From Myxococcota bacterium (GTDB lineage Bacteria; Myxococcota_A; SURF-8), in contig CAXXQS010000001.1 of NCBI GenBank assembly GCA_963674735.2, positions 2,560,001 through 2,624,000 on the forward strand: 64,000 nt of DNA, read 5' to 3'. Positions 50,987 through 53,672 of the stretch are shown here, in pieces (position 1 is the first letter of the stretch; the number at the start of each line of letters is the position of its first letter). Below the pieces are notes generated by a model, which saw only the letters and a list, made by a program, of their open reading frames with translations, searched no databases and was not told the origin of the DNA. The position numbers and the translations under genes were made by a program.

Positions 50987-51064
50987 CGCTTCCTCTTTCT
51001 CACCCGTTGCCTCCCCGACCGGCCCTAACCGGCTCAACACGATCATTCAACAGGAGGCCCGACC

Positions 51065-51508
51065 ATGACAACCATCCGCGAAATTTTGAACGATAAAGGA
51101 CCGATTGTCGTTTCGATCCAGGAAAACAGCCATCTGCTCGAAGCCATCGACCGCCTCAACGAATTCTCCATCGGTTGCCTGGTGGTGATGAACGCCCAGG
51201 GACGCATGACCGGCGTGCTGACCGAACGCGACATTTTGCGCAACCTGCACCGCTACGGCAAAACCCTCGACGAGGTGCCCGTCTCCGATGTCATGAACCG
51301 CATCGTCTACACCGGCCGCCTCGACGACAACCTGGACGCGGTGATGGCGACCATGACGGAACGGCGCTTTCGCCATCTGCCGGTGGTCGATCACAACGAG
51401 CTGGTCGGTTTGATTTCCATCGGCGACGTGGTCAAACGGCTCAGCCATGAGCACGCCCGCGAAAACGCCATTCTGAAGGACTACATCAGCAGTCCCTACC
51501 CGGCGTAA
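51065..51508 (+). CDS. CBS-domain protein
   Basis: GVLTERD, RFRHLPVV, GLISIGDVVK; AGGAGG RBS. Confidence 0.93.
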   Translation: MTTIREILNDKGPIVVSIQENSHLLEAIDRLNEFSIGCLVVMNAQGRMTGVLTERDILRNLHRYGKTLDEVPVSDVMNRIVYTGRLDDNLDAVMATMTERRFRHLPVVDHNELVGLISIGDVVKRLSHEHARENAILKDYISSPYPA

Positions 51509-51580
51509 CCGGCTGTTTTCGGGGGGAACCGAGCCGAGATGAGCGGGTAATGGCGGATTAGGATGGGTGGAGTTTCAGGG

Positions 51581-51655
51581 GTAGGATGGGCAACAAGTTG
51601 CCCATCGCGTCGTCAAGTAAAGCTTCAAGAAGATGGGCAACAAGTTGCCCATCCT
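51581..51655. repeat. GTAG-tagged REP doublet family C, second arm interrupted by IS110
   Basis: GTAGGATGGGCAACAAGTTGCCCATC ... GATGGGCAACAAGTTGCCCATCCT; the terminal AC reappears at 52832 after the IS. Confidence 0.88.
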
Positions 51656-51669
51656 TGTATTATCCCTTT

Positions 51670-51872
51670 CAAGCGACTGTCATCGTTTGTGATGATAAGA
51701 TGAAACGACCTCCCGTAGCAAGCGGGAGGCCGTGGTGGGCGGCGAGATCGTCCCATCCTGGGGCCTGATGAGCCCGTTTTGTAGCCGGATCCGCCGTCCG
51801 TTTCGTCCGGGAAAACCCGAACAGTCGCAGGGGCCATTGTAATCGAAATGAGCCCGTATTGGCAAGGAAGGG
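51670..51872 (+). ncRNA. Putative IS110 bridge RNA
   Basis: Target loop CCCATCCT (51752-59) plus GTAG (51781-84); donor loop ACAGTCGC (51821-28) plus GCAAG (51862-66); each guide pair flanks an inner stem. RNA ends are approximate. Confidence 0.88.
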
Positions 51873-51878
51873 TGCGCC

Positions 51879-52814
51879 ATGAAGAAATGGATCGGGATCG
51901 ACGTCAGCAAAGCCGTTTTCGATGTCGCCGTCGACGGCGAAAGCACGTGCGTCCGCTACGCTTACACCAAAGCCGGCATGACACGCTTCGTCCGTTCGTT
52001 GAAGCGGATCGAGGTGGAGGGCGTCGTGATGGAAGCCACCGGCGGCTACGAACGGGAGCTGTGCAAACGTCTTCAGAAAGCGGGTTGGCCGGTGGCGGTG
52101 GTCAATCCCCGGCGCATCCGGGATTATGCCCGCGCCGTCGGCGTGATGGCGAAAACGGATCGACTCGATGCGGGCATCATCGCACGCTACGCAGCCGCCA
52201 TGCGTCCCGCACCGAACGAAACGCTCGGCGAAACCGCCCTCCTGTTAAAAGCCCTGTCTTCACGGAGGCGGCAGCTGGTCGCCATGCGCACGATGGAGAA
52301 AAACCGCACCGAACACGTGGGCGATCGGACGATCGGACAAAGCCTGCACCGCATTCTGGAGGTGATCGAACGGGAAATCGAGCGGCTGGATCGGGCCATC
52401 GCGGCGGCCATTGCATCGGATCGGGAGCGCAGCGACCGGGCCGCGCGGCTCCAAACGATGCCGGGCGTCGGCGCGTGCACGGCGAATCTTCTGGTGACGG
52501 ATCTGCCGGAGCTGGGGATCTACAACCGGCGGCAGATCGCGGCGTTGATCGGCGTGGCGCCCATGAATCGGGACAGCGGAACGTTTCGGGGTAAACGCAT
52601 GACCGGCGGCGGTCGTCATCGCCTGCGCACGGCGCTCTACATGCCGACGCTGGTGGCGATTCAACACAACCCGGTGATTCGCGGACACTACCAGCGGCTG
52701 GTCGGACGCGGCAAACCGAAGATGACGGCGGTGGTGGCCTGCATGCGAAAATTGGTCCTCATTCTCAACACGATGATGCGGAAAAACGAAGCCTGGAACC
52801 CGAATTTCGCTTGA
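51879..52814 (+). CDS. IS110 recombinase/transposase
   Basis: DEDD residues in GIDVSK, MEATG, KTDRLDA; PGVG; RDSG catalytic Ser loop; GGR..LR.ALY. Confidence 0.96.
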   Translation: MKKWIGIDVSKAVFDVAVDGESTCVRYAYTKAGMTRFVRSLKRIEVEGVVMEATGGYERELCKRLQKAGWPVAVVNPRRIRDYARAVGVMAKTDRLDAGIIARYAAAMRPAPNETLGETALLLKALSSRRRQLVAMRTMEKNRTEHVGDRTIGQSLHRILEVIEREIERLDRAIAAAIASDRERSDRAARLQTMPGVGACTANLLVTDLPELGIYNRRQIAALIGVAPMNRDSGTFRGKRMTGGGRHRLRTALYMPTLVAIQHNPVIRGHYQRLVGRGKPKMTAVVACMRKLVLILNTMMRKNEAWNPNFA

Positions 52815-52892
52815 CACCGATAACAGTCGCTACTTTTTTTTCTACGATCAACAAACCCAGTACCCGCCGGAAACGCACTCCGACACCCCCCT

Positions 52893-53672
52893 TCACCCCA
52901 TAAACTGCTCGCGCGCGACCGCGGCCAGCAGCAACACCAGAACCGCAATCGTCAAGGGGCGGATGATCCGTTCGCCGTTGCGCAGCACCAGACGCGACCC
53001 GAGCAGGTTGCCCGCAATACCGCCGCAAGCCGCGTAAATCGCCAGGGGAAACAGCACTTTGCCGTTGAGCAGAAAAATCGTTAGCGAACCGAGGTTGGAG
53101 GCCAGGTTGGCCAGGCGGGCATTGGCGGCCGCCGTCACCAGGTCGAAACGCAGAAGCAAGTAGAACGCAATCGCCATAAACGCCCCGGTGCCGGGACCGA
53201 AAAAGCCGTCGTAGCCGCCGATCAACCAGCCGATGCCGAAAGCCGCCAGCCATTGCCCCCGACGCGACAAGCGCAGCCCCGGCCCCCGCAACCAGCGGTC
53301 ACGAAACCAGAATGCCGCCGCCACGATGGGCACCAGCACCAGCAGCACCTGGCGCACGATCTCCGGGGGAGTCAACAGCGCCAGCTTGGCCCCCAAGGAC
53401 GCCCCAATCAGCGCCCCACCTGCCGCCAGCAAACCGAGCACCAGTTGCACGCGTCCCGCGCGGGCATAGCGGACGACCGCCGTCACCGTTCCCAGGCTGG
53501 ACGAGAATTTGTTGGTGGCCAGCGCCGTGTGCGGCGGCAGACCGAAAGCGAAATAAGCCGGTAAGCTGATCAAGCCGCCCCCGCCCGCAATCGAATCGAC
53601 AAATCCGGCCAGAAAGACCAGCCCCGTCAGCGAGATGATTTGAAGCGTGGAAAAATCGAGCGTTTCATACAT
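52893..53672 (-). CDS. TSUP (TauE/SafE, YfcA-like) transporter
   Basis: AGFVDSIAGGGGLI, ALATNK, YDGFFGPGTG. Confidence 0.93.
   Translation of the reverse strand: MYETLDFSTLQIISLTGLVFLAGFVDSIAGGGGLISLPAYFAFGLPPHTALATNKFSSSLGTVTAVVRYARAGRVQLVLGLLAAGGALIGASLGAKLALLTPPEIVRQVLLVLVPIVAAAFWFRDRWLRGPGLRLSRRGQWLAAFGIGWLIGGYDGFFGPGTGAFMAIAFYLLLRFDLVTAAANARLANLASNLGSLTIFLLNGKVLFPLAIYAACGGIAGNLLGSRLVLRNGERIIRPLTIAVLVLLLAAVAREQFMG

Follow-up and report, generated by a model that had tools for sequence, protein, structure and literature searches.

The window analysed here, 64,000 nucleotides of the genome of a Myxococcota bacterium (assembly GCA_963674735.2, contig CAXXQS010000001.1, forward-strand positions 2,560,001 to 2,624,000), contains an insertion sequence (IS) that is, with high confidence, an intact and probably recently active element of the IS110 subgroup, moving by bridge-RNA-guided recombination like that of IS621. 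The case is carried by the anatomy of the element, by its insertion at a single point of a repetitive extragenic palindrome (REP) in 8/8 copies, by covariation in the RNA of its left end, and by covariation of the guides with target, donor and handshake positions across relatives. At the level of sequence it has every feature of an IS110-subgroup bridge-RNA element that was examined, namely the domains, catalytic residues, ends, predicted RNA, guides, handshake bases and putative junction promoter. A preliminary description of this DNA, made from its letters, had called the element probably functional; that grading rests on its intactness, its eight identical copies and the fit of its guides, and it is from these that we infer transcription, binding of RNA to protein, circle formation and activity at the present day.

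The element, its target and its recombinase

The element has no terminal inverted repeats, shares a 2-nt core between target and donor and inserts site-specifically, all of which are characteristic of the IS110 subgroup. At the left junction GCCCATC (51647-53) and CT (51654-55) are followed by TGTAT (51656-60), and at the right junction ACAGTCG (52823-29) and CT (52830-31) are followed by ACTTT (52832-36). The left end is 223 nt long and the right end, after the stop codon, 17 nt, with a short sub-terminal repeat (ATA...TAT) flanking the donor. The junctions, guides and stems had been given coordinates in the preliminary description, and on reading 51400-53100 all of these proved correct (Table 1).

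The genome (5.26 Mb) holds the element eight times, with 100% identity across exactly element positions 1-1176. Each of its 25-mers occurs exactly eight times, and by the same counts there are no partial or decayed copies in the assembly. Because the eight copies are identical over exactly this length, the borders of the element are independently fixed. All eight have GATGGGCAACAAGTTGCCCATC-CT at the end of the left flank and AC at the start of the right one, so that 8/8 lie at one point of the REP, GCCCATC-CT/AC, as had been expected of any further copies (CCCATC-CT-AC). It had also been claimed that removing 51656-52831 restores a REP target, and the restored uninterrupted site, CCCATCCTAC, is indeed found 17 times in the genome, always as the 3' arm and CTAC end of the same REP hairpin. 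Eight of the 25 exact sites are occupied, the occupied ones having the same arm, and none lies outside the REP repeat; in 25/25 it is the hairpin's 3' arm that provides the left target (GCCCATC, 51647-53).

The target repeat has the form of a REP, with a GTAG head, an imperfect palindrome (22 nt, 32 genomic copies at up to 2 mismatches), many extragenic copies and frequent inverted doublets, one of which is made up here of the copy at 51581-51606 and the target REP. No gene for a REP-associated tyrosine transposase (RAYT) flanked by the target REP was found in the genome. The two RAYT-like genes that were found (L126 and L127, at G000 C1:276756-277121 and C2:350140-350490, with weak PF01797 matches of 28 and 26 bits) both stand beside a different GTAG palindrome, GTAGGTCGGACAGATTTTCTGTCCGAC, which occurs on both sides of each, and the REP label therefore rests on form. 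Two identical strong matches to PF01797 (L124 and L125, G000 C1:107653-108018 and C1:1746961-1747326, 108.9 bits, 150-aa frames) are probably transposases of the IS200/IS605 type.

Sequence identity between the flanks of different copies stops at the REP on the left, after 24-28 nt, and after 2-6 nt on the right, the flanks being otherwise unrelated. As they are unrelated beyond the repeat, the eight copies are separate insertions and not segmental copies, and segmental duplication was rejected on this comparison of copy pairs. A passive spread, in which duplicated REP segments or a RAYT carried the element about and its own recombination had no part, is scarcely credible. Such an account could draw on the RAYT-like genes in the genome and on the two exceptional copy pairs, one with a common REP doublet of 59 nt on the left and another with a common repeat of 54 nt on the right, but the other 26 of the 28 pairs lose their match at the REP on the left and after 2-6 nt on the right, the RAYT-like genes adjoin another REP family, and the boundaries of the element fall precisely at the CT core in every case. 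The right flanks of L006 and L007, which are identical for 54 nt next to the REP, include a palindrome-like motif, GGAGCG(T/C)GTCTCC, which is also seen to the right of a third copy (partly in L004).

In three contig sets the element forms a unitig whose depth figure is 79-91, its flanks having 9-15, which fits many copies and is not a copy count. Loose ends of contigs in these sets match the flanks of other copies, three of them on the right side (X1/X2) and two on the left (X3). Further loose ends occur at 52642 and 52715 (X1, X2) and at 52419, 52834 and 52964.

The preliminary description had recognised an intact IS110 recombinase of 311 aa. Its product matches both family domains well above their cut-offs, PF01548 (the RuvC-like DEDD domain) with E 3e-22 and 79.5 bits against 29, and PF02371 (the Tnp domain) with E 8.3e-19 and 68.2 bits against 21.3. 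The best matches among solved structures are ISCro4 (PDB 9t56, E 3.2e-37) and IS621 (E 1.3e-34), and in the alignment to 8wt6_A residues D8, E52, D94, D97 and S233-G234 stand opposite D11, E60, D102, D105 and S241-G242 of IS621. D11, E60, D102, D105 and S241 are reported to be essential in IS621 (PMC11208158), and the DEDD and Ser catalytic residues do not vary among 33 aligned relatives. In a collection of 5.8 billion clusters the closest protein has 64% identity, and members of the subfamily are usually 311 aa long.

Left-end RNA and its guides

Full-length relatives were drawn from related genomes (G008, which has 8 copies at 62%, as well as G009 at 54%, G001 and G004), from named genome contigs and from 80 metagenome loci. 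For 27 left ends RNAalifold gives a four-helix consensus, with an outer and an inner stem round loop 1 and a base and an inner stem round loop 2, and both-side, compensatory changes are found in 15 of its 21 pairs. The fold is thus one of two stem-loops with internal loops, and the stems round loop 1 had first been noted as GGGC/GCCC (inner, 51761-64/51772-75) and GGGCGGCG/CGCCGTCC (outer, 51737-44/51792-99). In the MAFFT alignment 92.9% of cells pair, against 77.0% in shuffled alignments, with 0/500 shuffles reaching the observed value, and sliding the partners by 1-3 columns brings the figure down to 31-54%.

A covariance model built on the left-end alignment, R1, was searched against 95 sources, that is the window and 94 loci, leaving out redundant G008 and G009 copies, loci of the genome itself and the partial loci L017 and L018. 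It has matches in 93 of the 95, always just upstream of the recombinase gene. Within the 64-kb window there is a single match (51730-51875, E 5.5e-30), and the eight matches in the genome are the eight copies. A second, cut-off match at the 3' end of one metagenome contig (L058, 1478-1529) has the same left target guide, which suggests another copy of that element nearby.

The preliminary description had assigned to this RNA the bridge-RNA architecture of IS621, and the segments match the published layout one by one (PMC11208158). In IS621 a left target guide (LTG) of 9 nt equals the target top strand (7 nt and core), a right target guide (RTG) of 4 nt is followed by handshake guides, and the left donor guide (LDG) has 8 nt (PMC11208160, PMC11208158); the right donor guide (RDG) is split into A157-U158 and C162-G165 by two flipped-out bases, with a non-canonical pair G161:dT12, and is followed by two handshake bases (PMC11208158). 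The same guide segments stand in the same order here, behind a 5' stem-loop and in two internal-loop modules. Loop 1, the target-binding loop (TBL), pairs with both target strands and loop 2, the donor-binding loop (DBL), with both donor strands, core included, in the element itself and by covariation in relatives. What had first been put forward on the REP target, on the CT core and on the guides, with a G-T wobble in the RDG, is borne out. Of the handshake bases, C51785 in the TBL is complementary to donor position 7, a G, and G51867, from the GA at 51867-68 in the DBL, to target position 7, a C.

Table 1. Features of the element and its insertion site (window positions)
Feature	Position	Strand	Remarks
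Neighbouring REP, opposite orientation: GTAG head 51581-84, palindrome 51585-51606	51581-51606	-	
Target REP hairpin GATGGGCAAC-AA-GTTGCCCATC and core CT 51654-55	51632-51655	+	8/8 copies
Insertion sequence	51656-52831	+	8 copies, 1176 bp, no terminal inverted repeats, CT at both junctions
Right donor TG 51656-57, then TATTAT 51658-63 (-10 box; its first TAT is the sub-terminal repeat)	51656-51663	+	
Leader arm of inverted repeat, complementary in RNA to LDG	51672-51685	+	
5' stem-loop CCTCCCG-TAGCAAG-CGGGAGG	51709-51729	+	
TBL module, made up of outer stem 51736-49/51788-51800 and inner stem-loop 51761-75	51736-51800	+	covariation
LTG TCCCATCCT	51751-51759	+	8/9 match to target top strand GCCCATC-CT
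RTG GTAG 51781-84, pairs with CT-AC; handshake CC 51785-86	51781-51786	+	
DBL module, made up of base stem CCC 51816-18/GGG 51870-72 and inner stem 51831-33/51853-55	51816-51872	+	covariation
LDG ACAGTCGC	51821-51828	+	identical to right end 52823-30
RDG AU 51858-59, two bases skipped, GCAAG 51862-66; handshake GA 51867-68	51858-51868	+	pairs with CT-TGTAT, one G:T
311-aa IS110 recombinase open reading frame	51879-52814	+	only long open reading frame in 51400-53100
TTGACA overlapping the stop codon	52811-52816	+	17 nt upstream of TATTAT 51658-63 on the predicted circle
Tip of the right end, with the sub-terminal repeat ATA, the left donor ACAGTCG (52823-29) and the core CT (52830-31)	52820-52831	+	
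Right target AC, completing the REP end CTAC	52832-52833	+	8/8 copies

It is in the relatives that the guides can be seen to follow the sequences they would read. The 94 model matches, less three that are cut off (L048, the second match of L058, and L106), leave 91 rows, with 85 distinct guide sets among them. In 69 of the 85 the LTG could be compared, the others being without a TTGTAT-like left border or without a flank, the RTG in 71, an exact donor match and an ungapped guide being required, and the LDG in 81. The LTG agrees with the left flank at a mean of 6.30 of 9 positions, where 2000 permutations give 4.10 ± 0.14 with a maximum of 4.55, and at 8 or more positions in 29/69. The four bases before the AG of the RTG match the right target completely in 43/71, at three or more positions in 59/71 and at the first two in 70/71, the permuted mean being 1.24 of 4. 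The LDG 7-mer is found exactly at the right end in 71/81, and its variants (ACAGTTG, ACAGCCG, ACGGTTG, ATAGTCA and others) match the right ends of their own elements. The handshake positions behave likewise, the base after the RTG being complementary to donor position 7 in 71/71 (67 C:G and 4 T:A) and the base after the RDG to LTG position 7 in 73/85, with 3 G:U pairs in addition.

The close relatives make the same point in a smaller compass. G008 and G009 lie at a hairpin ending in GCCCGAC-CT/AC and have the LTG TCCCGACCT, where the element of the window has TCCCATCCT for GCCCATC-CT, and the LTGs differ exactly where the REPs do (CCCATC against CCCGAC). In a metagenome-assembled genome of the Terriglobia (L010-L015) five copies that are 95-99.7% alike have two LTG variants, ACCGCCCC and ACTGCCCC.

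It could be argued that the protein itself recognises the REP hairpin, the left end being merely a promoter or 5' untranslated region and the guide matches incidental. In favour of this, the left target in this subfamily is a hairpin 3' arm at 25 of the 40 distinct loci, where random places would give 2.3; this is in keeping with the REP habit and with a preprint on ISPpu10, in which a target stem-loop is described as an additional determinant. Guides and flanks nevertheless covary over the 85 guide sets far beyond permutations, relatives at other hairpins have matching LTGs, and a hairpin gate would supplement guidance by RNA and not substitute for it, all of which makes recognition by protein alone very improbable.

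Proposed cycle, its promoter and points of doubt

With guidance by a bridge RNA as the preferred reading, a cycle can be proposed. Excision would join the right and left ends at CT into a circle, bringing TTGACA (52811-16) to 17 nt from TATTAT (51658-63), so that the joined ends would rebuild a junction promoter of the form TTGACA-17 nt-TATTAT. A left-end RNA of about 200 nt would then be made from this promoter, and weakly from integrated copies. Its second loop would read the junction of the element itself, the LDG (51821-28) pairing with ACAGTCG-C and the RDG (51858-59/51862-66) with CT-TGTAT, and a tetramer of the 311-aa DEDD/Ser recombinase would exchange strands at CT. A junction promoter has been described for IS110 elements (PMC11208160), and the same spacing of TTGACA and TATTAT is found in G008, G009 and the Terriglobia relatives. 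Integrated copies have only the weak -35 TGGGCA, which comes from the REP.

Several observations weigh against the reading of the element as a mobile, IS621-like one. The 40-mer of the predicted circle junction is absent from the assembly, and in the three contig sets neither joints nor an empty site nor a circle was seen. The guides fit imperfectly, as position 1 of the LTG, the mismatch behind the 8/9 match already reported in the preliminary description, is T where the target has G. An extension of the RTG (TT, 51779-80) would require AA after AC, which is found at 0/8 occupied and 0/17 free sites, its bases matching position 3 beyond AC in 0/8 of the element's own flanks and position 4 in 3/8, whereas four right-target bases are matched in 43/71 relatives; as there is no site with AA after AC, the effective RTG here is 4 nt, like that of wild-type IS621. 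For the Terriglobia relatives a fit is obtained only after a register shift of one base, and at the core T their guide has a mismatching A. The likeness of the RNA to the IS621 bridge RNA was drawn from published descriptions and not by a model-to-sequence comparison. A scan of 51000-53500 against Rfam 15 gave only sub-threshold matches, which were taken as chance: sX15, a small RNA of Xanthomonadaceae, reaches 23.5 bits (gathering score 55) on the minus strand at 51733-51865, antisense to the bridge-RNA region, and is probably a chance match, and STnc400 scores 22.3 bits against 80 over the REP doublet.

The first of these points would also be expected if the copies were intact and now silent or immobile, the eight insertions being the trace of one past burst and the RNA not being made once the element is integrated. 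The weak -35 provided by the REP fits such an account, as does IS621 itself, whose bridge RNA is reported to be weakly expressed from genomic loci and whose excision is reported to be inefficient (PMC13626964). Eight copies that are 100% identical over 1176 bp, with none decayed, an open reading frame and catalytic residues that are intact, and guides that still fit target and donor all speak the other way, and silence of the copies is judged unlikely.

Returning to the element as a recently active one, its left end has a further peculiarity in an inverted repeat of 14 nt (13/14) between 51672-51685, 17 nt inside the left end, and 52818-52831, the tip of the right end. The minimum-energy fold pairs the leader arm (51672-85) with the LDG. 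Apart from the element itself, only L021 and L022, the two relatives closest to it, have this leader repeat at 10-14 nt, and a few near relatives have a shorter motif, GCGAC. The only Shine-Dalgarno-like sequence of the recombinase gene, AAGGA (51864-68), stands about 10 nt before the start codon and lies within the RDG, the DBL handshake guide and the base stem of the DBL (GCAAGGAAGGG, 51862-51878), and in the element and the relatives inspected the start codon follows 4-8 nt after that stem. It is tempting to suppose that in this clade a single left-end transcript might switch between guide RNA and messenger, although this is a doubtful proposition. If it were true, an LDG paired with the leader would mask donor recognition, and there would be a layer of control coupling the folding of the RNA, the binding of donor and the translation of the recombinase.

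Likeness to known elements

The closest point of comparison is IS621, which has the same PF01548 and PF02371 domains, DEDD and Ser residues, CT core and right target AC, and which also targets REPs, its wild-type target being ATCAGGCCTAC (PMC11208160). The long left end, short right end and ATA/TAT sub-terminal repeat described for the IS110 subgroup (PMC11208160) are common to the element of the window. The proteins are only distantly similar (phmmer E 1.3e-34, residues 4-300; 326 aa in IS621 against 311 aa), and the RNA is predicted at about 200 nt against 177 nt. A specificity different from that of IS621 had been claimed for both target and donor; this stands for the target, with a left target of GCCCATC against ATCAGGC, and for the donor it amounts to 2 of 14 positions, P6-P7 being CG here and AT in IS621, with ACAGTCG in fact the commonest donor of the subfamily (31/81). 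The IS621 donor given in the preliminary description is printed in the methods of PMC13396178. The TBL handshake base is C here and A in IS621, a change that compensates for the difference in the donor, as the handshake model predicts. Searches with blastn against E. coli genomes gave no match to the element, and a tblastn search against plasmids returned 2638 records with IS110 transposases, none being labelled IS621 among the 60 listed.

Other known systems are further removed. ISCro4 (PDB 9t56), the best match among solved structures, belongs to the same family and is distant in sequence, the comparison being one of proteins. ISPpu9 and ISPpu10 of Pseudomonas putida are described as multi-copy IS110 elements in repeated extragenic palindromes, to which the element is likened by description, and in ISPpu10 a target stem-loop is placed 5' of the paired bases (preprint). 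The IS1111 elements with their seekRNA have the same family of recombinase, and the 14-nt inverted repeat resembles their long sub-terminal repeats. They are described as having a short left end and a long right end (PMC11208160), and an IS1111 layout was rejected for the present element, whose right end is 17 nt and left end 223 nt, whose RNA model matches upstream of the gene and whose 14-nt repeat is specific to its clade.

Elements of this kind, their habit of targeting REPs and the rules of their guides have been published before, the bridge-RNA mechanism having been described in 2024, and thousands of bridge-RNA orthologues have been predicted, with 5,511 RNA-target pairs used (PMC11208160). 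REP-targeting IS110 elements with bridge RNAs are thus known, and that established picture is unchanged. With a protein identity of at most 64% in a large collection the element would count as a new IS, although the subfamily may already be included among the orthologues tabulated in PMC11208160. It is a very compact natural example (1176 bp, a 311-aa enzyme and a right end of 17 nt), of which eight identical copies and 17 free identical target sites are found in one genome; its compactness, its free sites and the relatives in which LTG and REP have changed to match make it a convenient orthologue for work on the guide rules, on pairing at the handshake positions and on any part played by the target hairpin. 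The donor 14-mer and the REP 22-mer appear in no paper of the literature search, and matches to shorter words were to unrelated primers.

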